Assembly: GCA_963840565.1 (NCBI GenBank)
Contig: CAWIZH010000003.1
Coordinates: 150,210-214,209, forward strand
Source of the DNA: an uncultured Solirubrobacterales bacterium
GTDB taxonomy: Bacteria > Actinomycetota > Thermoleophilia > Solirubrobacterales > 70-9
Length of the DNA stretch: 64,000 nucleotides
Direction of reading: 5' to 3'
The translations under genes were made by a program, and so were the position numbers. The notes under the pieces are model-generated. The model saw nothing but the letters and a program-made list of their open reading frames with translations. It had not been told where the DNA came from and ran no database searches. Below are positions 2,672-60,843 of the stretch, piece after piece (the first letter of the stretch is position 1; each line of letters begins with the position of its first letter).

Positions 2672-3760
2672 ATGAAATCGTTGTCGGTAGCGATCGGGTT
2701 GGTGGCCCTGCTCGCCATCGGCGCGGTTCTTGCTTCGGGGGGATCGGGGACCGACTCGGTTCGGCAGCGCTATCTGTCTGAGAGCAACGCGCTGCGGACG
2801 GTGTCCCGGTTCGGGACGAAGCGGACCGTGACCGTCCGCTCGTTGGGCAAACCCGATGCCGTCGGTCCCGATCCCCGTTGGCTCGCGGCAGCCCGACCGT
2901 TGGGCCCCGGTGCGCCAAGCTGGGCGCGGCGAATGTATGGGCGATCGCTGCTTGTCCTGCGCGCTCTCACCGACCCGCGAAGCGGAGCGGTCCTCGCCGG
3001 TGCCCGTGACGGCTGGGCCTACGCCTGGCCCCGCGACGCGAGCGCCGTAGCGATCGCGCTTGCCGTGGCGGGGTACCGGGGCGAGGCGAGGCGCATTGTG
3101 GGATTCCTGCGCGGGCTCGACCTCGGAGCCGCCGCTCGGTTCCAGCCCGATGGCACCCCCGTCGACGGACGCGATGCTCAGGGCGACGCCGCCGGGTGGA
3201 TCGCGGCGGCCGCCAGTGCGGCGGGACTACCGAGCGCGCCGATCAAGCCACCCTGGCAAGGGCTCGACGACTACCAGGAGAACGGCGGCGGCGATTTCCT
3301 CGCCAACGCGATCGCCTCTGGCGCATGGCACATTCGAGCGCTGTTCGAGACGCCCTCGGGGACGTTGTCCCGTCGCGCCGATGATCCCGGCTCGGGGCTC
3401 GACTCAGCCGCGGCCTGGGCGGTGCGTCCCTTCTCCGATCCCGCGCTTTACCCGCTCGTACGGCGGACGCTGCTGCGACTCGCCGCACGCAGCGGGCGCT
3501 TCGGGATCCTCCCCTCCGAAAGCTGGGGCGGCGGGGGCAACCCATGGACCGCCCCGACTGCGTGGACGGCCTGGAGCCTCGCCGCGCTCGGGGAGCGGCG
3601 CGCGGCACTTCACCTGATGGCCGAGCTCCGCCGCGCGGCCACGCCGACCGGAATGCTGCCCGAGAGGGTCGACGCGCACAGTGGCATTCCAACCTCGACC
3701 ACGCCGCTCGCCTGGTCGCACGCCTTCGCAATCCTCGCCCTACGCGAACTCTGGCCGTGA
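2672..3760 (+). CDS. exported glycoside hydrolase family 15-like (glucoamylase-type) protein
   Basis: N-terminal signal/TM segment MKSLSVAIGLVALLAIGAVLASGG. GWAYAWPRDAS, WTAPTAWTAW and PLAWSHAF motifs resemble the (alpha/alpha)6 GH15 fold. Confidence 0.6.
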   Translation: MKSLSVAIGLVALLAIGAVLASGGSGTDSVRQRYLSESNALRTVSRFGTKRTVTVRSLGKPDAVGPDPRWLAAARPLGPGAPSWARRMYGRSLLVLRALTDPRSGAVLAGARDGWAYAWPRDASAVAIALAVAGYRGEARRIVGFLRGLDLGAAARFQPDGTPVDGRDAQGDAAGWIAAAASAAGLPSAPIKPPWQGLDDYQENGGGDFLANAIASGAWHIRALFETPSGTLSRRADDPGSGLDSAAAWAVRPFSDPALYPLVRRTLLRLAARSGRFGILPSESWGGGGNPWTAPTAWTAWSLAALGERRAALHLMAELRRAATPTGMLPERVDAHSGIPTSTTPLAWSHAFAILALRELWP

Positions 3761-18960: not shown

Positions 18961-20772
18961 ATGGATCGACTGGAACAAAGCAGGGTTTCTCGCAGCGCCC
19001 GCCTGTCCCTCGCGGCCGGCCTGCTGATGCTGCTCTGCCTGCTCCTCCTCGCCGGCCCCCGCTCCAGCGCCGCGGCCGAAACGGCCGAACGGCCCAGCTT
19101 CGTCGTGATCCAGACCGACGACCAGACCCTCGACGAGCTCTACGCGACCTTTGGCCAGCCGAAGCTGCAGGCGATGCCCAACACGCTCAACCTGATCGCC
19201 AAACGCGGTGAGACCTTCAACAACTACTACGTCTCCTACCCGCTCTGCTGCCCCTCGCGGGTCAGCCTGCTGACCGGTCGCTACGCCCACAACAACGGCG
19301 TCAAAGGCAACATCCAGCCAAACGGCGGCTACTTCGGCTTCTCCTTCCGCGCCGCCTACAGCCACAACCTCGCCACCTGGCTGCAGGGCGCCGGCTACCG
19401 CACGATCCACGTCGGCAAGTTCCTCAACGGCTACGGCGACGAACCGTACTCAAACGGCACCGAAGTCCCGCCCGGCTGGAGCGCCTGGCACACGGTGGAG
19501 AAGGCCGATACCGAGCACTACTACTACGGCTACTCGCTCAACAACAACGGCCAGATCGAAGGCCCCTACGGCGACTCCGGCAGCTGGGACACGCGCGAAT
19601 ACGGCGCCCGCGACGACATCGGCTGCCCCTTCGCCCCGCTCAACGGACAGCCCTGCTTCTACGAGACCGACACGCTGACCAACATCGCCACCGCGGAGCT
19701 GCAGGGAACCTCGCCGGAACAGCCCTTCTACCTGCAACTCGACTACACGGCTCCGCACGGTGACTTCCGCCACCCGGCCGGGCCCGAGCCGGCGCCGCGT
19801 CACTACGACTGGTTCAAGGGCGCCCCCTTGCCGCACAACCGCTCGGAAGGGTTCGACGAGGGCAACGTCTCCGACAAGCCGCGCTTCATCCGCGAAGCGC
19901 CGTACCTCGGGCTCAGCGACATCCACACCTACCGCGTCTACTACGACAAGGCGCTCGAGTCGCTGCGTTCGATCGACGACGGGGTCAAGCAGCTGGTCGA
20001 CACGCTCGGTTCCCAGCATCGCCTGCGCAACACCTACATCATCTTCACCTCCGACAACGGCTTCTTCTACGGCGAGCACCGCCTGATCGGCGGCAAGTTC
20101 CTCGCCTACGAGCCCTCGACCCACCTCCCCTTCCTGATCCGCGGGCCGCACATCCGCGCCGGCACCGAATCGAACGAGATCGTGGGCAACATCGACATCG
20201 CCCCGACCGTGCTCGAACTGGCCGGGGTCGAACCCGACAAGAGCGTCGACGGGCGCTCGATGACGCCGTTCCTGCAGGACCCAGACCTGACCACCCTGCG
20301 CCCGTACCTCTTCGAGTCCTTCGTCGAGAGCTCCGACGTGGTCGAAGCCGGCGCGATCGCCGAACCGGGCGACCAGAGCAGCTCGACGACAGCCCGGGCA
20401 CGGCGCAGCGCCGGCGCCACCGCCTCGATCCTGGCGCCGCCCAAGGACTACGAGGGGCTGCGCCTCGGTCCCTACAAGTACATCGCCTGGCCCGACGGGG
20501 AGAAGGAGCTCTACGACCTCGAAAAGGACCCCTACGAGCTCAACAACATCGTCCGCATCCCCAACTACTTCCCGGTCCGCAACTTCCTCCACCGCGAACT
20601 GCTCAACCGGCTCGAGGACTGCGTCGGGCGGGTCTGCCGCGAAGAAGCCGCGGAAATCCCGCTTACCCGCAAGGAACGCCAGGAGGCGATCCGCATCCGC
20701 GAAAAGGAACGCAGGGAAAAACGCCAGAAGCACAAGCCGTCGCAGAAAAAGCAGCTGCAGCGGCACAGGTAG
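18961..20772 (+). CDS. exported Cys-type sulfatase
   Basis: Signal peptide, VVIQTDDQ, and the sulfatase signature PLCCPSRVSLLTGRY (C-x-P-x-R formylglycine site). It carries an unusual Lys/Arg-rich C-terminal tail. Confidence 0.85.
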   Translation: MDRLEQSRVSRSARLSLAAGLLMLLCLLLLAGPRSSAAAETAERPSFVVIQTDDQTLDELYATFGQPKLQAMPNTLNLIAKRGETFNNYYVSYPLCCPSRVSLLTGRYAHNNGVKGNIQPNGGYFGFSFRAAYSHNLATWLQGAGYRTIHVGKFLNGYGDEPYSNGTEVPPGWSAWHTVEKADTEHYYYGYSLNNNGQIEGPYGDSGSWDTREYGARDDIGCPFAPLNGQPCFYETDTLTNIATAELQGTSPEQPFYLQLDYTAPHGDFRHPAGPEPAPRHYDWFKGAPLPHNRSEGFDEGNVSDKPRFIREAPYLGLSDIHTYRVYYDKALESLRSIDDGVKQLVDTLGSQHRLRNTYIIFTSDNGFFYGEHRLIGGKFLAYEPSTHLPFLIRGPHIRAGTESNEIVGNIDIAPTVLELAGVEPDKSVDGRSMTPFLQDPDLTTLRPYLFESFVESSDVVEAGAIAEPGDQSSSTTARARRSAGATASILAPPKDYEGLRLGPYKYIAWPDGEKELYDLEKDPYELNNIVRIPNYFPVRNFLHRELLNRLEDCVGRVCREEAAEIPLTRKERQEAIRIREKERREKRQKHKPSQKKQLQRHR

Positions 20773-20878
20773 CCGTCGGGGTCGCTCCCCGCTCAACTTT
20801 TTCGGTGGTACCGCAGCGGCTGGCAGAGATTGAATCGCCGAAAAAGTACAAGCCGCGGGGAGCGACCCCGACGGCTAC
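20769..20878. repeat. 110-bp nested palindrome with 24-bp perfect terminal inverted repeats
   Basis: GTAGCCGTCGGGGTCGCTCCCCGC (20769-20792) pairs with GCGGGGAGCGACCCCGACGGCTAC (20855-20878). A subterminal CTTTTTCGG pairs with CCGAAAAAG. Each arm is itself a CGGGG-N5-CCCCG hairpin followed by a T-tract. Confidence 0.8.
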
Positions 20879-22635
20879 TCGATTACTGCTAGGACGTCGC
20901 CGGAGGAAACAGCAGCGCCCTCCGTGACGTTGAGAGAGGTGACTTTTCCGGCGCGGTGGGCGACGATCTCGTTCTCCATCTTCATCGCCTCGATCACGCA
21001 GATCAGGTCGCCCTCGGCGACCTCGGCGCCTTTCTCGACCGCGACTTTGAAGACGGTGCCCTGCAGCGGCGAGGGCAACGACTCGCTCGAGGCGCCACCG
21101 CCGCCACCGGCCTTGCGCTCGCGTTTGGGCGGCCGCTTGCCGCCCGCGGCGGGCGCCGCACCACCGGCGATCGCCTCGCCGATCACCTTGACGTCGAAGA
21201 GCTTGCCGGAGACCTCAACCTTGTAGTCGCGGGCGACGACCTCGGCGCCCTCCTCGACCTCCGGCGCCTCGACCTGCTCCGGCGCCGTGGCCTTCAGCCA
21301 GTCCCGGTCCTCCATCAGGTCGCGGCAGGTCTCGCCCTTGGCCCACTGCTCGGTGGCGAGGATCGCTTCATGGAACGGGATCAGCGTGGTCAGGCCGCCG
21401 GAGTCGTATTCGCCGAGCGCCCGCAGCATCCGCCGCGTCGCCTTCTCGCGATCGACGTCCCAGACGATCAGCTTGGCCACCATCGGGTCGTACATCGGCG
21501 TCACCTCGGAGCCGCCTTCGACCCCGGAATCAACCCGCACGCCGGGCCCCGACGGCTCGCGGTAGGAGTCGCCGATCGGGCCGGGCGCGGGGGCGAATTT
21601 CTTGTGCGCCGCCTCGGCGTTGATCCGGCACTCAATCGACCAGCCGCGCAGCTCGACGTCCTCCTGGGCGATCGAGAGCGGCTCCCCGGCCGCGACCAGG
21701 ATCTGCTCGCGGACGATGTCGACGCCGCTGATCATCTCGGTCACGCAGTGCTCGACCTGCACCCGCGTGTTCATCTCGAGGAAGAAGTACTCGTCGCCGA
21801 CCTGCATGCCCTCGATCGTGCCGGCACCGCGGTAGCCGACCGCCGCCGCCGCGTCGGTGGCGATCTTGCCGATCCGCTCGCGCATCTCCTCGTCGACGTG
21901 CGGGCCCGGCGCCTCCTCGATCACCTTCTGATGACGGCGCTGGATCGAGCAGTCGCGCTCGCCGAGGTGGATCACGTTGCCGTGCGAGTCGGCGAGGACC
22001 TGGACCTCGACGTGGCGCGGGTCCTCCAGATAGCGCTCGACGTAGACGCGGTCGTCGGAGAAGAACTTCTCGCCTTCGCGGCCCGAGCCCTCGAAGGCCT
22101 CCTCGAGGTCGTCGGGGGTCATCGCGACGCGGAAGCCCTTGCCGCCGCCGCCGCCGGCGGCCTTGCAGGCGACCGGGTAGCCGGCTTCGTCGGCCTGGCG
22201 CCTGGCCTCCTCGAGGTCTTTGGCGACCTCGGTCGAGCCGGGGACGATCGGCACCCCGGCCTGCTCCATGATCTCGCGCGCCTTCGTCTTCGACCCCATC
22301 GCTTCGATCGCCTCCGGCGGTGGGCCGATCCAGGTGATGCCGGCCTCGGCGCAGGCGCGAGCCATCTCGGCGTTCTCGGCGAGGAAGCCGTAGCCGGGAT
22401 GAATGCCTTCCGCCCCCGCCTCCTTGGCCGTCTCGATGATCTTGGCGATGTTGAGGTAGCTCTCAGCCGGCACCGCGGGGCCGATCAGGAAGGCCTCGTC
22501 GGCCTCGCGCACGTGCGGCGCATCGCGATCGATCTCCGAGTAGACGGCGACCGAGCCGATGCCCATCTCCTTCAGGGTGCGGGCGACCCGGATCGCGATC
22601 TCGCCGCGGTTGGCTATGAGGACCTTCTGAAACAC
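20875..22635 (-). CDS. acetyl/propionyl-CoA carboxylase alpha chain (biotin carboxylase fused to BCCP)
   Basis: KVLIANRGEIAIRV, the ATP-grasp core, and the C-terminal biotinylation motif EAMKMENEI. The start codon is GTG. Confidence 0.92.
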   Translation of the reverse strand: MFQKVLIANRGEIAIRVARTLKEMGIGSVAVYSEIDRDAPHVREADEAFLIGPAVPAESYLNIAKIIETAKEAGAEGIHPGYGFLAENAEMARACAEAGITWIGPPPEAIEAMGSKTKAREIMEQAGVPIVPGSTEVAKDLEEARRQADEAGYPVACKAAGGGGGKGFRVAMTPDDLEEAFEGSGREGEKFFSDDRVYVERYLEDPRHVEVQVLADSHGNVIHLGERDCSIQRRHQKVIEEAPGPHVDEEMRERIGKIATDAAAAVGYRGAGTIEGMQVGDEYFFLEMNTRVQVEHCVTEMISGVDIVREQILVAAGEPLSIAQEDVELRGWSIECRINAEAAHKKFAPAPGPIGDSYREPSGPGVRVDSGVEGGSEVTPMYDPMVAKLIVWDVDREKATRRMLRALGEYDSGGLTTLIPFHEAILATEQWAKGETCRDLMEDRDWLKATAPEQVEAPEVEEGAEVVARDYKVEVSGKLFDVKVIGEAIAGGAAPAAGGKRPPKRERKAGGGGGASSESLPSPLQGTVFKVAVEKGAEVAEGDLICVIEAMKMENEIVAHRAGKVTSLNVTEGAAVSSGDVLAVIE

Positions 22636-24457: not shown

Positions 24458-25273
24458 GTGCTGATCGAGCTCCAAAGTCATTCGACCGTTTCCGATGGGC
24501 AGCTTGCGCCCGGGGAAGTCGTCGCGCAGGCCTGGGAAGCGGGCGTCACGACGCTGGCCCTGACCGACCACGATGCGATTGCCGGGGTGGCTGAGGCCGC
24601 TGAGGCCGCTCAGGGTCTGGGCGTTGAGCTGGTGCCGGCGATCGAGATGTCCTGCGTGCACGAGTACGCCGAAGACCTCCACGTCTGCGGCTACTGGGTC
24701 GACCTGGAGGCGATCGCGCCGGCCTGCGAGCGGGCGCAGAAGGAGCGGGTCGACCGGGCCGAGGCGATCATCAAGCGCTTGCGGGGCTGGGGCTTTGAAA
24801 TCAAACTTGAGGACGCGATCAAAGAGGCCGGTGACGCGCTCTCGATCGGCCGCCCCCACATCGCCAAGGCAGCCGGCGCGACCGGCGACCTAGGTCCCTT
24901 CTTCGAGGAGTACCTGGTGCCAGGAGCCAAGGCCTTCGTCCCTCGCGAGTGGCCCACGGCAGAGCAGGCAATAGCCCTGATCCGAGAGGCAGGCGGAGCA
25001 GCCGTAATCGCCCACCCCTACTGGGACATCAAAGACCCCACTGAGGTAGAGGACCTGATCCGCTCCCTAGGAGCCGACGGCGTAGAGACCTTCTATCCCT
25101 CGCACACCAAGGAGCAAACCAAGCATCTGCTCGACCTCTGCGAGGAGCTGAACCTCACTCCCACAGCCTCGTCGGACTACCACGGCCCGACCCACAAGAC
25201 GTTTTCGAAGTTCGGGGACTACGACACCTACGGCCTCGGTGAGCCTCAAGTCCCTGAGAAGGAGGGGCGGTGA
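24458..25273 (+). CDS. PHP-domain phosphoesterase (TrpH/YciV-like)
   Basis: IELQSHSTVSDG, LALTDHDAIAG, IAHPYW and SDYHG metal-ligand motifs. The start codon is GTG. Confidence 0.8.
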   Translation: MLIELQSHSTVSDGQLAPGEVVAQAWEAGVTTLALTDHDAIAGVAEAAEAAQGLGVELVPAIEMSCVHEYAEDLHVCGYWVDLEAIAPACERAQKERVDRAEAIIKRLRGWGFEIKLEDAIKEAGDALSIGRPHIAKAAGATGDLGPFFEEYLVPGAKAFVPREWPTAEQAIALIREAGGAAVIAHPYWDIKDPTEVEDLIRSLGADGVETFYPSHTKEQTKHLLDLCEELNLTPTASSDYHGPTHKTFSKFGDYDTYGLGEPQVPEKEGR

Positions 25274-25337
25274 CCCCTCTCCAAACACTCAAGAGCGGCC
25301 TCCGGCCGCTCGTTTGGGGAGGGGTTGCCGCCCCTCC
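25261..25337. repeat. family-A conserved-core hairpin element, copy 1
   Basis: GGAGGGGCGGTGACCCCTCTCCAAAC | ACTCAAGAGCGGCCTCCGGCCGCTC | GTTTGGGGAGGGGTTGCCGCCCCTCC. The arms pair at 23 Watson-Crick plus 3 G:T positions. Confidence 0.85.
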
Positions 25338-25350
25338 CCACGCATAGTCC

Positions 25351-25905
25351 TTAAGCGGTAACCGCAGCCGCCGGAATCAGGTCCCGCGACTCCAAGTACT
25401 CGAGCAGCTTCTGCGCCGACTCCTCAGGAGTCTCGTTCTCCGTGTCGCAGACCCAAGCCGGGTTCTCCGGAATCTCGTACGGGTCACTGACGCCAGTGAA
25501 TTCCTTGATCTCACCCGAGAACGCCTTGGCGTAAAGCCCCTTGACATCACGCTCGGCGCAGGTGTCGACCGAGGCCTTGACGTAGACCTCGATGAAGCGA
25601 TCGCCCATCAGCTCGTGGGCCTCGTCGCGGATCTCGGCGTAAGGCGAGATCGCGGCGGTGATCACCGGCACGCCGTTGCGGGAGAGCAGGTCGGCGACGA
25701 AGGCGATGCGACGGATGTTGATGTCGCGGTCCTCCTTGGAGAAGCCGAGCCCCTTGGAGAGGTTTTCGCGCACGACGTCGCCGTCGAGGATCTCGAGCTT
25801 CGAGCCGCGGTTTCGCAGCTCGGTCTCGAGCAGCCCGGAAATGGTCGTCTTGCCGGCACCGGAGAGTCCGGTGAACCAGAGGGTGAAGCCCTTCTCGCCA
25901 GCCAT
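25351..25905 (-). CDS. cysC: adenylylsulfate (APS) kinase
   Basis: FTGLSGAGKTTISG P-loop, LDGDVVRENL, and a length of 184 aa. Confidence 0.92.
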   Translation of the reverse strand: MAGEKGFTLWFTGLSGAGKTTISGLLETELRNRGSKLEILDGDVVRENLSKGLGFSKEDRDINIRRIAFVADLLSRNGVPVITAAISPYAEIRDEAHELMGDRFIEVYVKASVDTCAERDVKGLYAKAFSGEIKEFTGVSDPYEIPENPAWVCDTENETPEESAQKLLEYLESRDLIPAAAVTA

Positions 25906-29631: not shown

Positions 29632-30039
29632 TTAGGGCTTAGTCAGCTCTGGAGGCAGTCTTTTACGCGCATGAAGGATGGCCGCAGCCTCGCCCGACTC
29701 AGCAACCGCACCACCCTCCGGCGCCAGCGGCAACCCGGCCTCGGCCCAGCCAACAATGCCCTCACCCAGCTTCTTGGCGTCATAGCCCTCAGCCGCAAGC
29801 GCTTCGGTGGCCATAGTCGAGCGATTGCCCCCGCGGCAGTAGAAGACAACGGGCCGATCCTGATCGATCTCATCCGTCCGATCAGCAAGCTCAGCCAGAG
29901 GCAAGTGCTTCGCGCCCTCAATCCGGCCCATCTCCCACTCATGCTCAGCCCGCACATCAACCAACTGCGCACCCGCATCAACAAGCTTTTGAGCCTCTTC
30001 GCGGGAAATCTCAGAAATCTCAGGCGTCTCTTCACTCAT
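29632..30039 (-). CDS. rhodanese-domain sulfurtransferase
   Basis: Active-site loop VFYCRGGNRS. The ATG at 30039 (MSEETPEI...) was chosen; the upstream part of the ORF reads through repeat copy 2. Confidence 0.8.
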   Translation of the reverse strand: MSEETPEISEISREEAQKLVDAGAQLVDVRAEHEWEMGRIEGAKHLPLAELADRTDEIDQDRPVVFYCRGGNRSTMATEALAAEGYDAKKLGEGIVGWAEAGLPLAPEGGAVAESGEAAAILHARKRLPPELTKP

Positions 30040-30068
30040 AGAACGGGAATCTAGCCAACGCGTTGTGC

Positions 30069-30144
30069 GAGGGGCAGGTGCCCCCTCCCAAAACACTCAA
30101 GAGCGGCTCCTGCCGCTCGTTTTGGGAGGGGGCACCTGCCCCTC
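30069..30144. repeat. family-A conserved-core hairpin element, copy 2
   Basis: GAGGGGCAGGTGCCCCCTCCCAAAAC | ACTCAAGAGCGGCTCCTGCCGCTC | GTTTTGGGAGGGGGCACCTGCCCCTC. The arms are 26 bp and perfect. Confidence 0.88.
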
Positions 30145-30154
30145 CCCCAAACCC

Positions 30155-30364
30155 TTAATCGATATCGGTTCCCTCAATAAGGAAGGCGACCCGCACGTGA
30201 GCGCGGTACTCATCCAGATTCTCTCCCCGGATCCCAGTCGAAACGATGTCGACCGCCCGAATGTTTCGCAGGGTCCCCTGCGCCTGACCCAGGGCCTGCT
30301 TCGCAGCATCGTCAGTAGACGTTTTGGAGCTGCCCACCAACTCGATGATCTTCACGACGGCCAT
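30155..30364 (-). CDS. dodecin-family flavin-binding protein
   Basis: MAVVKIIELVGSSKTSTDDAAKQAL...AHVRVAFLIEG, 69 aa, with a strong GGAGG RBS upstream of ATG 30364. Confidence 0.8.
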   Translation of the reverse strand: MAVVKIIELVGSSKTSTDDAAKQALGQAQGTLRNIRAVDIVSTGIRGENLDEYRAHVRVAFLIEGTDID

Positions 30365-30546
30365 CTTTCTCCTCCTTCTGAATCCTCGACAGTGCCCTTC
30401 GCGCTGACTCCCTCGACTAGCGCGGCCCGCTGCCACGGGCCGATCGCCTCCGCCTCACCGCCTGGCGCCGCAGCAGTCTCCGCGCGGAAGCGCTCAATCG
30501 CCGCCGCGATCGCGGCGCCCTCGTCCTCGCTCGGGCTGCGGGCCAT
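30352..30546 (-). CDS. small Ala/Glu-rich hypothetical protein (weak resemblance to acyl-CoA carboxylase epsilon-type peptides)
   Basis: 64 aa, with SEDEGAAIAAAIERF...GPWQRAAL. It overlaps the dodecin start by 13 nt. Coding status is unproven. Confidence 0.3.
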   Translation of the reverse strand: MARSPSEDEGAAIAAAIERFRAETAAAPGGEAEAIGPWQRAALVEGVSAKGTVEDSEGGERWPS

Positions 30547-32207: not shown

Positions 32208-32337
32208 GAGTTCCGCGCGACGGGGGTGGCGGGTGCGCCTGAAGCTTTTCCAAACTTCGGCATCGCAGCGCTGCTTTCGAAGCTTCTTTGTCGCGAAACC
32301 GCTCGAAGCTTCCGTCGATACGAGCCTGTTGACTGTT

Positions 32338-32490
32338 GAGAGAGGAGCCCGGTCGCCCTCCAGGCGAATGTCGCGAAGCGGCGAAAAGCATTCCGGTTAT
32401 TGCGCGGCCGCAGGCCGCGCTCCTCATTCACCCCAAGAGCTCCGCTCTTGGGGTGTCAATTCGACTGGAGGGCGACCGGGCTCCTCTCTC
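32338..32490. repeat. 153-nt multi-hairpin element closed by 26-bp perfect inverted repeats
   Basis: GAGAGAGGAGCCCGGTCGCCCTCCAG (32338-32363) pairs with CTGGAGGGCGACCGGGCTCCTCTCTC (32465-32490). Inner hairpins are GCGCGGCC-GCA-GGCCGCGC and CACCCCAAGAGC-TCC-GCTCTTGGGGTG. Confidence 0.8.
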
Positions 32491-32534
32491 CACCCCGCTG
32501 GAATCGAACCGTCTACTAGAGGACGCTAGGGCGC

Positions 32535-41596: not shown

Positions 41597-42016
41597 ATGG
41601 GATCGATAGTCGTCGGGTATGACGATTCAGATTGCGGCAAGGCGGCTCTCGACGCCGCGGCCGAGCTGGCCAAGGGCCTCGGCGATGGCATCGTCGTCGT
41701 CTTCGGCTACGCGCCACCGGGGATCTGGGGAGGCGAGATTGCCGGGCACGAGGAAGCGATTGAGGAACTTGGAGCCAAGATGATGGAGGAAGCAAAGCGG
41801 CGCGCTGCGGAGCATGGCATCGAGGCCGAGGTGGAGATGGTCGCGAAGCGGGGGACGGAGGCCTTGGTCCAGGTTGCCGATGCCCGCGATGCGCGGATGA
41901 TCGTCGTCGGCAGCTATGGGGATCCGCCGTTGAAGGGCGTGATCGTTGGGTCGACCCCGACGAAGTTGCTGCACTTGGCCGAGCGGCCGGTGCTGGTGGT
42001 TCCTGCAAAGGCGTAG
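41597..42016 (+). CDS. universal stress protein (UspA family)
   Basis: IVVGYDDSD...VVGSYGDPPLKGVIVGSTPTKLLHLAERPVLVVP. Confidence 0.85.
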   Translation: MGSIVVGYDDSDCGKAALDAAAELAKGLGDGIVVVFGYAPPGIWGGEIAGHEEAIEELGAKMMEEAKRRAAEHGIEAEVEMVAKRGTEALVQVADARDARMIVVGSYGDPPLKGVIVGSTPTKLLHLAERPVLVVPAKA

Positions 42017-42017
42017 G

Positions 42018-42092
42018 GGAGGGCGGAAGTCCCTCGCCCAGACCCGCTCGCTTCGCTCGCTCAAGTGTCTGGGCGAGGGACTTCCGCCCTCC
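42018..42092. repeat. family-B conserved-core hairpin element, copy 1
   Basis: GGAGGGCGGAAGTCCCTCGCCCAGAC | CCGCTCGCTTCGCTCGCTCAAGT | GTCTGGGCGAGGGACTTCCGCCCTCC. The arms are 26 bp and perfect. It is wedged between two convergent TAG stops. Confidence 0.88.
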
Positions 42093-43489
42093 TAGCGGCC
42101 GATGTGGAAGCCGATCAGCTCTGGGATGCGAGCGAGCAGAGAGCTGATCGGGTCGGGCCTGCGGCCACGGAGCTCAGCTGACTCCTTGCGTATGAGGCCG
42201 GCTCGGATTGCCTCGCCGCCTATCCAGTGGAAGGGCTCGGGGGGCAACGCCGGCGTGGAAGGGTCGACGAAAGCCAAGCGGGAATGGTCGTCGTTGCGGC
42301 CGAGAGCCAGGGAGGCGAGGGTTCGGCCGACCATGTGGGATGGGCCTACTCCGTTGCCGGTGTAGCCAGCCGCCACGAAGGCGTGGTTGCCGCGCAGGGG
42401 CAGGACCAAGGGGAGGTGGGTTGGCGAGGCGTCGATCGGGCCTCCCCAGGCGTGGGTTATGGCGCGGCCCTCGAGGCCGGGGAAGTAGTCCCATAGGTGC
42501 TTAGCGGTGAGGGAGACGACCTCTGCGTCCAGCTCGGTGTTGCCGTGCAGGCGGGCGCCCATGCCGATGTGGCCGCCGCCCCAGCCGAAAGCGATGCGGC
42601 CGTCAGGCGTGGTGCGGAAATAGTTGATCAGGGCGCGGCTATCGGTGATGCACTCGCCCCCCGTCCAGCCGATCTCCTCGAGCAGCTCGGGCACCGGCTC
42701 GGTGAGGACGATGTGCGACGAGGCGACCGAGAGCCGGTTGTGCAATGGCCCGCCCGCCGACTTGGCAGCGGCGCCGACGGCAAGCACGGTGCGCTGCGCC
42801 CGGACAACTCCCCCGGCGGTAAGTACTTCAACGCCGGTCCACGAGCCGACGACCTTGCTCACCGGCGAGCGCTCGAACACCTCGACCCCGCTTGCCCGCA
42901 GTCGCTCGCGCAGCCCCAGCGCCAACCGCGCCGGCTGCACGGTTGCGGCCTTCGAGTAATAGGCCCCACCTCTGAATGCAGGCGAGGCACAGTGCTCCGC
43001 TACCTGCGTCGGAGAGAGCGGCTGGATCGCATCCTCCGCCCCAAGCTCCCGACAAGCATCGAGCGCCTTCCCCCAAACCGCATCGTGCGCCTCGGCAGTG
43101 GAGACCTGGAGGTAGCCGCCATGCGTGTACCAAGCATCGACCCCCTCGCTCTCACAGAACTCACCAATCCCAACCGCAGCCTCTTCCGCCGCCCGGGCCA
43201 CCGCCAGCGCCCCCTCATCACCCCACCGCTCACGCATGCTCGCCAGCGAAAACCACATCAGGTTGCAGAACCCCCCATTCCGCCCACTGGGCCCAAACCC
43301 ACACCGATCGGCCTCGAGCAAAACCACCGACGCCTCAGGCTCGAGCTGCTTTACATGCCAGGCAGCCCACATCCCGGTGTAGCCACCCCCAACGATGACC
43401 ACATCCGCATCTCGCTCCCCCACAAGCTCCGGAGCAACCTCCACATCCGGGGCCTCCTCAAGCCAGTACCCGTGAGCATCGTGCTTCAC
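42092..43489 (-). CDS. FAD-dependent oxidoreductase (DAO/glycine-oxidase-like)
   Basis: The dinucleotide fold VVIVGGGYTGMWAAW. The GTG at 43489 was chosen because the ATG-43585 extension is a translation of repeat copy A3. Confidence 0.75.
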   Translation of the reverse strand: MKHDAHGYWLEEAPDVEVAPELVGERDADVVIVGGGYTGMWAAWHVKQLEPEASVVLLEADRCGFGPSGRNGGFCNLMWFSLASMRERWGDEGALAVARAAEEAAVGIGEFCESEGVDAWYTHGGYLQVSTAEAHDAVWGKALDACRELGAEDAIQPLSPTQVAEHCASPAFRGGAYYSKAATVQPARLALGLRERLRASGVEVFERSPVSKVVGSWTGVEVLTAGGVVRAQRTVLAVGAAAKSAGGPLHNRLSVASSHIVLTEPVPELLEEIGWTGGECITDSRALINYFRTTPDGRIAFGWGGGHIGMGARLHGNTELDAEVVSLTAKHLWDYFPGLEGRAITHAWGGPIDASPTHLPLVLPLRGNHAFVAAGYTGNGVGPSHMVGRTLASLALGRNDDHSRLAFVDPSTPALPPEPFHWIGGEAIRAGLIRKESAELRGRRPDPISSLLARIPELIGFHIGR

Positions 43490-43504: not shown

Positions 43505-43582
43505 AGGACGCACGGGCGGGGTCCCCAGGACACTCAAGAGCGGCTCCTGCCGCTCGTCCTGGGGACCCCGCCCGTGCGTCCT
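43505..43582. repeat. family-A conserved-core hairpin element, copy 3
   Basis: AGGACGCACGGGCGGGGTCCCCAGGAC | ACTCAAGAGCGGCTCCTGCCGCTC | GTCCTGGGGACCCCGCCCGTGCGTCCT. The arms are 27 bp and perfect, and the core is identical to copy 2. Confidence 0.88.
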
Positions 43583-43596
43583 CATACACTCCTGGC

Positions 43597-44658
43597 GTGC
43601 CCACCTTCGACGCCCTAGCCGACCTACCGCTAGAGATCGAGGGCTACGAGCTACAGCCGCTGGAGCTCCACCTCCCCAGCTTCGAACGCCTCTGCACGGT
43701 GATCCACCTATGGGGCGCCGGCGAGGACGGCCTAGGCGAGGACGTCACCTACGACGCCGTCGACCACATTGCTTTCCAGGACGCTGGGCCGAGCCTTGAT
43801 ATCACCGGCTTTTCGACCTTGGGTGAGTTCTGCGAGATGGTCGGTGAGCAGGACACCTTCCCGGCCGAGCCCCAGCGCGATGTCTCCCGGCTCTACCGCC
43901 GCTGGGCCTTCGAGTCGGCGGCGCTCGACCTGGCGCTGTGCCAGGCTGGCAAGGGCCTCGCCGAGGTCGTCGGCCGCGAGCCGCGGCCGGTCACCTTCGT
44001 CGCCTCGATGCGACTGTCGCCGGGCGAAGACAGGCCCTCGACGATCGACACCCTGCAGGTCAAGCTCGACCGCTATCCCAGCCTGCGCTTCAAGCTCGAC
44101 CCGACCAACGACTGGACCGACGAGCTGATCGCTGAGCTGGTGCAGACCGGCGCGGTCGACTCGCTCGACCTCAAGGGCCAGTACAAGGGCACCGTCGTCG
44201 ACGTTGAAACTGATCCCGAGCTCTACGCCAAGCTGATCGAGGCCTTCCCCGAGGCATGGCTGGAGGACCCCGACGTCAACGACGAGACGCGCCCGATCCT
44301 CGAGCCGGTACGCGACCGCCTCACCTGGGACGCGCCGATCCACTCGATCGCCGACATCGAGGCGCTGCCCTGGGCGCCGAAGATGGTCAACATCAAGCCC
44401 TCACGGGTCGGCGGCTTGCGCCGGCTCTGCGAGGCCTATGACTACTGCGCCGAGCACGGCATCGGCGCCTACGGTGGCGGCCAGTGGGAGCTCGGCGTCG
44501 GCCGCGGCCAGATCCAGGTCCTCGCCTCGCTCTTTCATCCCGACACGCCGAACGACACCGCGCCGCGTGGCTACAACGCCGCCGAGCCAGAGGCCGGGCT
44601 GCCGACCAGCCCGCTGGAGCCTAAGCTGAGTCCGAAGGGATTCCGCTGGGAGGAGTGA
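43597..44658 (+). CDS. enolase-superfamily (mandelate racemase/muconate lactonizing-like) protein
   Basis: ESAALDLAL, FKLDP, WLEDP and MVNIKPSRVGG resemble enolase-superfamily barrel motifs. The start codon is GTG. Confidence 0.5.
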   Translation: MPTFDALADLPLEIEGYELQPLELHLPSFERLCTVIHLWGAGEDGLGEDVTYDAVDHIAFQDAGPSLDITGFSTLGEFCEMVGEQDTFPAEPQRDVSRLYRRWAFESAALDLALCQAGKGLAEVVGREPRPVTFVASMRLSPGEDRPSTIDTLQVKLDRYPSLRFKLDPTNDWTDELIAELVQTGAVDSLDLKGQYKGTVVDVETDPELYAKLIEAFPEAWLEDPDVNDETRPILEPVRDRLTWDAPIHSIADIEALPWAPKMVNIKPSRVGGLRRLCEAYDYCAEHGIGAYGGGQWELGVGRGQIQVLASLFHPDTPNDTAPRGYNAAEPEAGLPTSPLEPKLSPKGFRWEE

Positions 44659-44743
44659 GGGATTTGGTGTCCTCGCCCGTCCAAATGCCGGGCTAATGAG
44701 CCCGGCATTTTGAGTATCCGCCCGTTCGAGGACACCAAATCCC
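44659..44743. repeat. nested palindrome enclosing an intrinsic-terminator-like hairpin
   Basis: GGGATTTGGTGTCCTCG (44659-44675) pairs with CGAGGACACCAAATCCC (44727-44743). The inner AAATGCCGGGCT-aatg-AGCCCGGCATTT (44683-44710) is followed by T. Confidence 0.75.
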
Positions 44744-44817
44744 TCTTCTTCGGCCGGCCGAATTCCACGATTCGGCTACGTTGCGGGCTGACCGCCGCCG
44801 AGCTAGGAGGAGAAGAG

Positions 44818-45354
44818 ATGGCCGAGAAAAGTTTTGCCGACGCGCTCAACGAGCAGGTCGCCAACGAGTTCGCCGCCTCGCAGCAGTACGTCGGGGCCGC
44901 GGTCTACTACGACGCCGAGACCCTGCCCCGCCTTGCCGCCTTCTTCTACCGCCAGGCGCTGGAGGAGCGCGAGCACGCGATGATGATGATCCAGTACCTG
45001 CTCGACGTCGGCGAGGGAGTCCACATCCCCGACATCAAGGCGCAGGAGACGACTTACTCCGACGGCAGTGCCCCGGTGCGGATGGCGCTCGAGCAGGAGA
45101 AGCGGGTCAGCAACGAGATCTTCGCCCTCTTCGAGCTGGCGCGTGAGGTCAAGGACTACCGGGCCGAGCAGTTCCTGCAGTGGTTCGTCAAGGAGCAGGT
45201 TGAGGAGGTCGCGTTGATGGGTGACCTGCTCAACGTGGTCGAGCGGTCGAAGGAGAACCTGCTGCTGGCCGAGGACTACATCGCGCGGGAGAGCCTGGGT
45301 GAGGAGGGGTCAGATCCGACCGCCCCGCCTATGGCCGGAGGGTCGGCTGGGTAG
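44818..45354 (+). CDS. ferritin
   Basis: ALNEQVANEFAASQQYV...EEREHAMMMIQYL ferroxidase-site residues. The ATG at 44818 is preceded by AGGAGG. Confidence 0.85.
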   Translation: MAEKSFADALNEQVANEFAASQQYVGAAVYYDAETLPRLAAFFYRQALEEREHAMMMIQYLLDVGEGVHIPDIKAQETTYSDGSAPVRMALEQEKRVSNEIFALFELAREVKDYRAEQFLQWFVKEQVEEVALMGDLLNVVERSKENLLLAEDYIARESLGEEGSDPTAPPMAGGSAG

Positions 45355-45425
45355 GAGAGGTAGCCCTCTTCCAGACCCGCTCGCTGCGCTCGCTCAAGTG
45401 TCTGGAAGAGGGCTACCTCTCCTAC
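45351..45425. repeat. family-B conserved-core hairpin element, copy 2
   Basis: GTAGGAGAGGTAGCCCTCTTCCAGAC | CCGCTCGCTGCGCTCGCTCAAGT | GTCTGGAAGAGGGCTACCTCTCCTAC. The arms are 26 bp and perfect. The left arm contains the ferritin TAG. Confidence 0.88.
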
Positions 45426-46217
45426 TACCCAAGCCAGCCGGCGCGCTTGCGCATCGATTTGATCCGGCGGAACTCGGCGATGTCCTCGCGTAGGGCTGCG
45501 GGAGCAGGTGCTGGGAGGAATCTCGCTGGCAGAGGTGACTCCACGACTCCGGTGTCGGAGCTTGTGACCTTGTAGGCGCGGGCTCCTCGACGGGCTGTGA
45601 CAGCCGATGGCGGGCCGGGGCCTTCCCAGATCAGGCCGGCGTAGTCGTCTAGGCCGTAGCCGTCGGGCATGCCGTTGCCGACCGCCTCCAGGTAGGCGGC
45701 GCGGCGCTCGGGCTCGTTGTTGTAGTGGACGCAGAGGCTGCCGCTGAGCAGGCCCAGGCCCGCCTCGACTTTGGGATGGCCGGATGACTTGGTGATGCCG
45801 GCCTCGAACCAGCACATCGCGCCGGCGCTCTGGCCGGCGAGGACGATGCCCTGGCGCCAGGCGAGGCTGAGGATCGCGCTCGAGTTCGTGGGCCTCCCAG
45901 ACCGCCAGCAGGTTGACCAGGCTGCCGCCGCCGACGTAGATCAGGTCCTGGGCGAGGAGGTGGTCGCGCAGCGCCATCGGCCGCCGGCCGAGGCGGAAGA
46001 GCGAGAGGTCGGAGGGCTCGCAGGGACGCTCGCCGAAGGCGGCGTAGAAGCGGCCGATCTGCTCGGAGGTGTCGCCGCTGGCGGTCGGCAGGATGCAGAT
46101 CCGCGGCCGCCGCTCGGCCCGCTCGGTGGCCAGCCGCAGCATCAGCTCGCTGACCGCGCGATCGGGCGGGCGCGAGGTGAAGTCGTGGCCGCCGAGGGCG
46201 AGGATGCGGGAGACCAT
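45425..46217 (-). pseudogene. peptidase S51 (dipeptidase E-like) gene with one frameshift
   Basis: The N-terminal frame reads ...DLIYVGGGSLVNLLAVWEAHEL. The sequence continues in another frame as AILSLAWRQGIVLAGQSAGAMCWFEAG.... An apparent 1-nt insertion lies near 45875-45882. Confidence 0.7.
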
Positions 46218-54146: not shown

Positions 54147-54524
54147 ATGACCATCTCCATCACCGGCGTCGACTTCGCCACCGTCTTCGTCACCGACTAT
54201 CCGGCCGCGATCGAGTTCTACTGCCAGACCCTCGGCCTCGACCACTCGGCCGACTACGGCAAAATCCCTGGCGGCGAGGTCGAGACCGGCAACCTCACCC
54301 TGCAGGTACTGGATGCCGCCGCAATCGGCCGCGAGTTCCAGGCCAGCGGCCACCCGATCGCCTTCCACGTCGAAGACGTCGAGGCAACCCGCGCAGAGCT
54401 GGAGTCGAAGGGCATCACCTTCCTCGCCGAGACGATGGACAGCGGCGTCTGTCACATGGCCCACTTCACCGACCCCGACGGCAACGCCCTGATGATCCAC
54501 CACCGCTACGCGCCTCGCGACTAA
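54147..54524 (+). CDS. VOC (glyoxalase/bleomycin-resistance fold) family protein
   Basis: 125 aa, with FYCQTLGL...HPIAFHVEDV...FTDPDGNALMI, a pattern typical of VOC proteins. Confidence 0.75.
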   Translation: MTISITGVDFATVFVTDYPAAIEFYCQTLGLDHSADYGKIPGGEVETGNLTLQVLDAAAIGREFQASGHPIAFHVEDVEATRAELESKGITFLAETMDSGVCHMAHFTDPDGNALMIHHRYAPRD

Positions 54525-60705: not shown

Positions 60706-60733
60706 AGCGGCGCGCGCGACAACGCAGGGACAA

Positions 60734-60807
<74 letters not shown>

Positions 60808-60843
60808 GGGAGACAGGCGACTGGCGCCCGGGCGGGCATTATC

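Follow-up and report, generated by a model that had tools for sequence, protein, structure and literature searches.

REP and BIME repeats are extragenic, GC-rich hairpins that occur in about a hundred or more copies and are concentrated after the 3' ends of genes. In Proteobacteria, REPs are also found inside operons, and they often lie about 15 nt or less from stop codons. In E. coli they stabilise the upstream mRNA, and Liang, Rudd and Deutscher reportedly found in 2015 that REPs situated no more than ~15 nt from a stop codon affect translation. Another group of small, non-coding intergenic repeats is formed by MITEs such as the Correia elements of Neisseria, which have inverted ends of ~26 bp, are transcribed into hairpins and can serve as terminators or RNase III targets.

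Three hairpins from a 64,000-nt stretch of DNA (hereafter the window; positions 150,210 to 214,209 of contig CAWIZH010000003.1, assembly GCA_963840565.1, from an uncultured Solirubrobacterales bacterium) are members of an undescribed repeat family, family A, which mostly resides just after stop codons in uncultured soil actinobacteria. Its members are about 76–80 nt (~78 nt) long and consist, from the outside in, of an outer stem of 26 bp, closing C-G and A-T pairs that never vary, and a tip made up of a 6-nt 5' bulge (ACTCAA) and a 7–9 bp GC inner hairpin with a free loop. The family resembles REPs in its GC-rich hairpins, copy number and extragenic position after gene 3' ends, and its apex matches a single REP in size and layout. 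In REPs, however, the stem sequence is conserved and the loop is variable, whereas in family A the long stem is variable and the apex is conserved. Furthermore, each element holds a single REP-like unit within the loop of a 26-bp perfect palindrome instead of an inverted REP doublet, and the GTAG head of REPs is missing; GTAG is confined to the outer ends of some arms, where it provides stop codons. A Y1 transposase of the RAYT or IS200 type, which an earlier note on this DNA had suggested looking for, did not turn up in the 0.9 Mb sampled (105 loci and the window): tblastn with E. coli RayT gave no real match, and the best one lies inside an opposite-strand gene whose product, judged by eye, is presumably malic-enzyme-like.

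The other known systems also differ from family A. The terminal repeats of MITEs are read by the transposase and conserved, whereas the distal positions 14–26 are the least conserved part of the family A arms, and neither a target-site duplication nor an insertion polymorphism is seen among species at 84–92% identity. Bidirectional intrinsic terminators, like family A, place a GC hairpin bordered by A and T tracts between convergent genes. Family A adds to this an asymmetric bulge of 6 nt, which never varies, and an extension of 26 bp, and some of its copies lie away from transcript ends. The integron attC sites have RYYYAAC/GTTRRRY at their outer ends, whereas AAAAC/GTTTT is found at the inner arm ends of family A, next to the apex, and the neighbours are syntenic housekeeping genes rather than cassettes and an integrase. 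Quasipalindrome correction, which perfects repeats in a single step, together with the loop flips of plastids, matches the arms, indels and apex inversions described below; it is, however, a mutational process acting at arbitrary inverted repeats and not a family with a selected, sequence-specific apex. At the Rfam gathering threshold, the window yielded only two tRNAs and seven loci yielded nothing, so that the search proposed in the earlier note returned no matching family; permissive thresholds added generic long-hairpin matches far below threshold (miRNA precursors, DUF3800-IV and others). The searchable literature held nothing relevant on the motif strings or on Solirubrobacterales repeats. 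Since the family does not pass the defining tests of REPs (conserved stem, GTAG head), MITEs (conserved ends, target-site duplication), attC sites or any Rfam family, the elements belong to none of these named families, but are of the intergenic palindromic-repeat kind.

Copies in the window and across genomes

Copy 1 (25261..25337, plus strand; 92.5 bits with the covariance model) has 26-nt arms at 25261-25286 (5') and 25312-25337 (3'), and its three non-Watson-Crick positions are all G:U on the plus strand. The core (25287-25311, ACTCAAGAGCGGCCTCCGGCCGCTC) is composed of the bulge ACTCAA (25287-25292) and the inner hairpin GAGCGGCC-TCC-GGCCGCTC (25293-25311). The element is flanked by convergent genes: the TGA stop of a PHP-domain gene (24458-25273) lies inside the 5' arm, and 13 nt separate the 3' arm from the end of an APS kinase gene (25351-25905, minus strand). 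Copy 2 (30069..30144, plus strand; 101.5 bits) has its core at 30095-30118 and forms 26 perfect pairs between the arms at 30069-30094 and 30119-30144; the stretch 30067-30146 pairs as well, with one mismatch. It is located 8 nt after the stop of a dodecin gene (30155-30436) and 27 nt before the ATG of a rhodanese gene (29632-30039), and because both are encoded on the minus strand, copy 2 is antisense to the two of them. Its 10 orthologues have the identical orientation. Copy 3 (43505..43582, plus strand; 89.1 bits; core 43532-43555) has 27 perfect arm pairs of atypical sequence and occupies a divergent, 119-nt spacer between an FAD oxidoreductase gene (42092-43477, minus strand) and a gene at 43597-44658 (plus strand). 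These three copies had been recognised in the earlier note, and its observations that copies 2 and 3 have the same 24-nt core and that all mismatches of copy 1 are plus-strand G:U pairs were confirmed; none of 100 shuffles of the window contained that core. RNA folding predicts a nested hairpin for copies 1–3 on either strand, with energies of -64 to -82 kcal/mol and z-scores of -7 to -13.

Running the covariance model over the window returned exactly five strong copies, namely the three family A copies on the plus strand and two copies of a related family B on the minus strand. The first of the latter (42018..42092; 65.3 bits) has 26 perfect arm pairs, the bulge ACTTGA and the inner stem GCGAGC-GAA-GCGAGC with tandem G.A pairs, and it fits between the stop of a Usp gene (ending at 42016) and that of the FAD oxidoreductase gene (42092-42094). 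The second (45351..45425; 63.3 bits) also has 26 perfect arm pairs, which start with GTAG and end with CTAC; its arm contains the TAG stop of a ferritin-like gene (ending at 45354), and the stop of a minus-strand ORF at 45425-45427 adjoins it. A family E element (44657..44745, plus strand; 27.8 bits, E = 4e-4) has a 19-bp outer stem and a variable yet perfect inner hairpin of 11 bp with the loop TAATGA, which is followed by the conserved TTGAGTATCCGCCCGTT. The motif of an inner hairpin followed by TTGAGT is common to family E and the complement of family A, and the design of families B and E is shared with family A. In orthologues, the site at 42018-42092 carries family B, a family A variant or family E, and the site at 45351-45425 carries family E in loci L096 and L103. 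Thus, at both family B loci other species have family E or an A variant between similar distal arms, which indicates that apexes are exchangeable at a fixed site. An inverted-repeat scan of the whole window revealed further repeats of similar design at 20769-20878 and 32335-32493. The genes beside the elements have housekeeping functions (PHP-domain, APS kinase, dodecin, rhodanese, Usp, FAD oxidoreductase, ferritin-like and sulfatase), and no mobility genes were seen among the neighbouring genes examined.

The genome-wide pattern search that the earlier note had called for was carried out with ACTCAAGAGCGGC-N3-6-GCCGCTC on one genome per prokaryotic species and yielded at least 111 loci, ~105 of those listed coming from ~50 MAG species. 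Among the matches listed, these carriers belong to uncultured Solirubrobacterales or to Actinomycetota without further classification, and their genomes measure 2.4–3.1 Mb. Matches from other phyla (L006, L011, L025, L032, L044 and L056) have no arms and were set aside as chance matches. In viral contigs only core-like matches were found, all without arms, which argues that the family is not phage-borne. It would be a lineage-specific family, probably with on the order of 100 copies per ~2.6–3 Mb genome, lodged in very short intergenic spacers.

The arms follow the consensus gAGGGnCGGGTGnCCCCTCCCAAAAC (102–120 copies among the matches listed). Its 13 bp nearest the core are well conserved; the other, distal 13 bp vary, and at several of these positions all four kinds of Watson-Crick pair occur. 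The arms of copy 3, once regarded as unrelated to those of copies 1 and 2, are an extreme variant of this consensus, and the orthologues of copy 3 bridge it to the remaining family. In ~10% of copies GGAC/GTCC stands in place of the core-adjacent A/T tract. The inner hairpin is preceded at its 5' foot by ACTCAA or the variants ACTCCA and ACTTGA, and its stem varies in ways that still pair (GAGCAGCC/GGCTGCTC; GCGCGGC/GCCGCGC) or that turn two pairs into tandem G.A pairs, as in GCGAGGC/GCCGAGC and in family B. A fully symmetric inner palindrome (ACTCAAGAGC...GCTCTTGAGT), a candidate ancestor, was present in none of the loci. The sub-hairpins that had been noticed within each arm are a genuine feature of the consensus (GAGGG...CCCTC), but they pair in only ~72% of cells and show little covariation, and a functional three-hairpin fold was therefore rejected.

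Pairing of the stem and selection on the apex

The length of the stem is uniform. At least 20 of 26 gapless arm pairs form in 102 of the 118 pattern matches with enough flank (among the matches listed), and pairing per position is 90–100% over positions 1–26. Pair 26 still forms in 91% of cases but pair 27 in 45%, so the stem length is fixed at 26 bp. In an alignment of 111 sequences 98.5% of cells are paired, as compared with 77% in column shuffles and ~50% with slid partners. This alignment was restricted to members with 22 or more of the 26 pairs, so that its paired percentage is inflated; the double-sided changes, which this choice does not inflate, are found at 24 of the 26 outer pairs and 3 of the 6 inner pairs. 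An independent prediction with RNAalifold recovered 25 outer pairs and showed compensatory change at 23. G:U pairs make up ~1.5% of all pairs. The central proposal of the earlier note, a conserved loop with a covarying stem, thus holds across more than 100 copies among the matches listed and, as described next, within orthologous loci. The outcome that it named as a refutation, arms that are simply diverged copies of one consensus, holds only by half: the arms do share a consensus, yet compensatory changes far exceed what such divergence would leave.

The orthologous spacers, which had likewise been singled out for comparison, come from 19 loci syntenic with the window at 84–92% nucleotide identity. 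Each element in these loci is orthologous to a window element, which suggests that the family is old and has had no recent mobility; presence/absence polymorphism was not seen in the syntenic loci, where the sites are occupied except in the rearranged locus L106. Among orthologues, the bulge is 100% identical and the inner stem at least 96%, and identity falls to 64–92% in the proximal arm and to 51–64% in the distal arm, where pairing is nevertheless kept. Codon position 3 of the neighbouring genes is 60–78% identical, hence the distal stem changes at about the neutral rate with its pairing intact. The unpaired bulge, in contrast, is beyond the reach of arm copying and yet it is invariant, which demonstrates that the apex (the closing C-G and A-T pairs, the bulge ACTCAA and the GC inner stem) is under strong purifying selection.

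Two further kinds of change are seen in orthologues. Arm indels are symmetric, as exemplified by the copy 2 locus with C5/G5 in the window versus C4/G4 in L040. In addition, the apex can be inverted in place: at the copy 3 locus it is flipped in L036 and L096, whose arms are near-identical to those of L069 and L103, respectively, and the pair L021 and L077 provides a second clean case. Both flip-prone loci are devoid of gene ends, whereas the orthologue groups at gene ends (10, 9, 5, 5 and 4 members) display zero flips. The orientation relative to the abutting gene is thus fixed at gene ends and flips at loci without them.

Gene context and the two strands

Read in the ACTCAA orientation, 94 of 102 copies among the matches listed have a reverse-strand stop triplet within 16 nt of the 3' arm, and in 86 of 98 called cases an opposite-strand gene ends 0–16 nt from that arm, with a median of ~10 nt. 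Since the abutting gene is on the opposite strand, its mRNA reads in the order stop codon, arm, inner hairpin, UUGAGU, arm. Co-directional contexts agree, with 24 mRNAs carrying the complementary UUGAGU version versus 4 carrying the sense version, and families B and E in the window follow the same rule as family A. The suggestion that the elements function as plus-strand RNA at the 3' end of a gene, derived from the PHP gene next to copy 1, therefore does not describe the general context. Within 25 kb of the window, orientation matches the local gene strand and not a single replication polarity. Stop codons often reside within the arms (TGA in GGTGAC at -13; TAG in GTAG arm ends), and some copies are found in divergent promoter spacers or 3–27 nt ahead of the next start codon. 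The element flanks are purine-rich on the 5' side and CCC(C) on the 3' side, and form no direct repeat. The same loci contain many hairpin-free convergent junctions with gaps of -4 to 40 nt, and of the 92 convergent junctions that have no A- or B-type apex, only 14 contain a stem of at least 12 bp. The elements were accordingly dismissed as general terminators of the genome, because most convergent junctions have no hairpin at all.

The orientation rule points to the complementary (UUGAGU) strand as the mRNA, which is in conflict with the evidence from mismatches. On the ACTCAA strand, the surviving mismatches comprise 48 G:U, ~20 purine-purine, 7 A:C and 2 pyrimidine-pyrimidine pairs; at least one G:U is found in 28 copies and at least one A:C in 6, and the bias is present in every context class. 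The hint given by the G:U pairs of copy 1 thus extends to the whole family. Background strand composition was rejected as the cause of the G:U excess, as GC skew is negative on the ACTCAA strand at 71 of 89 loci and therefore has the opposite sign. The ACTCAA strand is also the only one on which the tandem G.A pairs of the GCGAGGC/GCCGAGC variant and of family B are stable. Together, the mismatch bias and the tandem G.A variants suggest that it is the fold of the ACTCAA strand that would be protected. The fold that matters may then form on this strand, either in convergent or antisense RNA or in single-stranded DNA.

Competing explanations and significance

The explanation that we favour, albeit tentatively and at somewhat less than even confidence, is that family A is an old, domesticated REP-like repeat whose cis action would be exerted on transcripts at the 3' ends of genes, while fold-back template switching and selection would keep its arms perfect. 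The orientation-dependent hairpin is a candidate read-through barrier, 3' exonuclease block or ribosome obstacle near the stop codon, and the apex would provide a sequence-specific protein contact. The arms might be kept perfect mainly by intrastrand fold-back template switching (arm-to-arm conversion or quasipalindrome correction) alongside selection on stem length, and template switching could also be the source of the symmetric indels and the in-place apex inversions. Copying or repair that regenerates palindromes had been one of the two possibilities raised at the outset, and copy-correction is now supported by the symmetric indels, the distal stem that remains paired at a neutral rate of change, the rarity of G:U pairs and the apex inversions. 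Template switching is able to turn imperfect inverted repeats into perfect ones, in bacteria too (PMC5941160, PMC7202029), and small inversions associated with hairpins have been described in plastid DNA (PMC12371153). The observations that speak against this explanation are the conflicting strand evidence, the many hairpin-free convergent junctions, the GGAC/GTCC copies and the copies in promoter spacers or just ahead of start codons.

An unlikely, DNA-level alternative is that the apex is the recognition or cleavage site of an HUH (RAYT/IS200-type) or other hairpin-binding enzyme on extruded single-stranded DNA, so that the enzyme would have driven the spread of the elements and the arms would be fold-back products. 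The apex is indeed laid out like a REP or an IS200/IS605 end, with a short, conserved motif in single-stranded form that lies 5' of a likewise conserved GC hairpin of 7–9 bp, and a strand-specific mismatch spectrum is expected of a single-strand hairpin. Moreover, G.G mismatches (7) are about as common as G.A, a frequency that by the SantaLucia parameters fits the stability of DNA mismatches better than that of RNA, and the elements include GCGAAGC-type and C-GNA-G loops, both of which form very stable mini-hairpins in DNA. Orientation on long contigs is consistent within regions and switches once per contig. However, the 0.9 Mb around 105 copies gave no Y1 transposase, a GTAG head and a REPIN doublet are missing, the 19 syntenic loci show no presence/absence polymorphism, orientation in the window tracks the local gene strand and not one replication polarity, and the family does not occur in viral contigs.

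Quite unlikely is the view that the elements are bidirectional intrinsic terminators only, in which the inner GC hairpin works with the A and T tracts and the long arms are a by-product. In ~85–90% of copies, UUGAGUGUUUU comes after the inner hairpin on one strand, and GUUUU on the other; three of the five window copies fill convergent spacers with stop codons at both arms, and canonical terminators are otherwise not enriched (6 found versus 9.7 expected). This view leaves the invariant bulge and the fixed 26-bp stem unexplained, however, and it is at odds with the missing U tract of the GGAC/GTCC variants, with the copies in divergent spacers or a few nt ahead of a start codon, and with the lack of a hairpin at most convergent junctions; in addition, the inner hairpin is weaker on the sense strand where it carries the tandem G.A pairs.

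The strand conflict also allows for a different reading of the mismatches, in which hairpins of the TTGAGT strand may be extruded and edited by NucS/EndoMS, leaving A/C, C/T and C/C mismatches behind. This actinobacterial mismatch endonuclease cuts only G/T, G/G and T/T (PMC6159521). On the TTGAGT strand, which matches the mRNA of the abutting gene in sequence, 68 of the ~80 surviving mismatches are A/C, C/T or C/C, and G/T, G/G and T/T are nearly absent, so the spectrum fits NucS editing, as the enzyme spares the former three. That the hairpins are extruded as single-stranded DNA, with the apex as a candidate recognition or nicking site of a hairpin-specific enzyme and stem repair enforcing the perfection of the arms, is nonetheless very doubtful; if true, it would mean a new self-maintaining palindromic element with a dedicated protein partner and a NucS-shaped evolution. 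Finally, it is highly improbable that the elements are functionless selfish palindromes, relics of one past burst that are perfect only via quasipalindrome correction. In favour of this are the near-neutral change of the distal arms, the flips of the apex, the symmetric indels, and the resemblance of the elements to insertions in otherwise tiny spacers. Against it, orthologues that differ at 22–40% of synonymous sites have bulges that are 100% identical, although arm copying has no means of correcting an unpaired bulge. Furthermore, a stem of 26 bp is maintained across ~50 species among the matches listed, orientation is fixed at gene ends and not elsewhere, and the elements are kept in streamlined genomes of 2.6–3 Mb.

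The usual conservation of bacterial repeats is inverted in family A: the unpaired tip is constant across species divergence, and the 26-bp stem turns over at an approximately neutral rate with its pairing kept. This combination offers a clean natural test of selection on structure versus arm-to-arm copying. The covariance model can be used directly to annotate carrier genomes. The invariant bulge-plus-hairpin apex predicts a specific binding partner in these widespread uncultured soil actinobacteria, and from the fact that orientation is fixed at gene ends, a directional influence on the expression of genes is to be expected.

Hairpin elements within the window

The nested hairpin at window positions 20769-20878 is 110 nt long, has perfect arms of 24 bp (GTAGCC...GGCTAC) and carries the inner stem ACTTTTTCG...CGAAAAAGT. 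It exactly fills the spacer between a sulfatase gene, which ends at 20772, and the convergent gene at 20875-22635, and the GTAG and CTAC ends of its arms provide the TAG stop codons of both genes. An element resembling this hairpin adjoins the orthologue of copy 1, the family-A element at 25261-25337, in L049, one of the at least 111 loci (L001-L111) of about 8 kb found by the family-A core scan.

A composite element of 159 nt occupies 32335-32493, where arms of 35 nt with 94% complementarity enclose two inner hairpins, namely GCGCGGCC-GCA-GGCCGCGC and CCCCAAGAGC-TCC-GCTCTTGGGG. The second of these resembles the family-A core in a symmetric form. Among loci L001-L111, no orthologue of the composite element was found. 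Searches of the 64-kb window with Rfam and ARAGORN returned tRNA-Phe (GAA) at 2525-2597 and tRNA-Asp (GTC) at 60733-60808, both on the minus strand, and no further matches.

Hairpin families and an inverted pair in related loci

A further hairpin family with a conserved loop and variable stem was observed in L028 (4253-4318), L037, L039, L042, L065, L072, L084, L085 and L092. Its 20-bp arms differ in sequence among species and remain paired, and they enclose a loop of 24-28 nt of the type CAGAGCAACAGCGGGGAGGCTCTG. These hairpins probably represent a single orthologous locus, and their orientation is opposite in some loci. Another family, with members at L016 4738-4805, L080 5462-5528 and L095 573-639, combines 19-bp arms of the type tgGCGGAGGGTGAGGGGGG with a loop of 29-30 nt, the orientation of which is likewise opposite between loci.

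In L009, two mutually inverted family-A copies (2699-2775 and 3245-3325) flank a small lipoprotein-like gene. The sequence common to the pair extends past the arms, reading gccttgcgcgagac at one flank and cccctgcctag at the opposite flank, and one CTAG supplies the stop codon of the neighbouring gene. A spurious ORF runs through one of the two elements.

Element orientation and genome compactness

Orientation was followed along two long contigs, CAVPDR010000002.1 (L109, L067, L074, L080, L016 and L062) and CAWFPS010000002.1 (L048, L095, L003, L064 and L063). Among the matches listed, family-A orientation changes once on each. On the former it turns from minus to plus near 365 kb, and on the latter it turns from plus to minus at a point between 672 and 904 kb. 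This pattern hints at a tie to replication direction or to a large-scale gene-strand bias.

The genomes behind the window and L001-L111 are extremely compact. In these loci, a 4-nt overlap or a gap of less than 40 nt without a hairpin is very common between convergent genes, and in the window such an overlap lies at 54521-54524. The genomes appear able to cope with convergent transcription in the absence of terminators.
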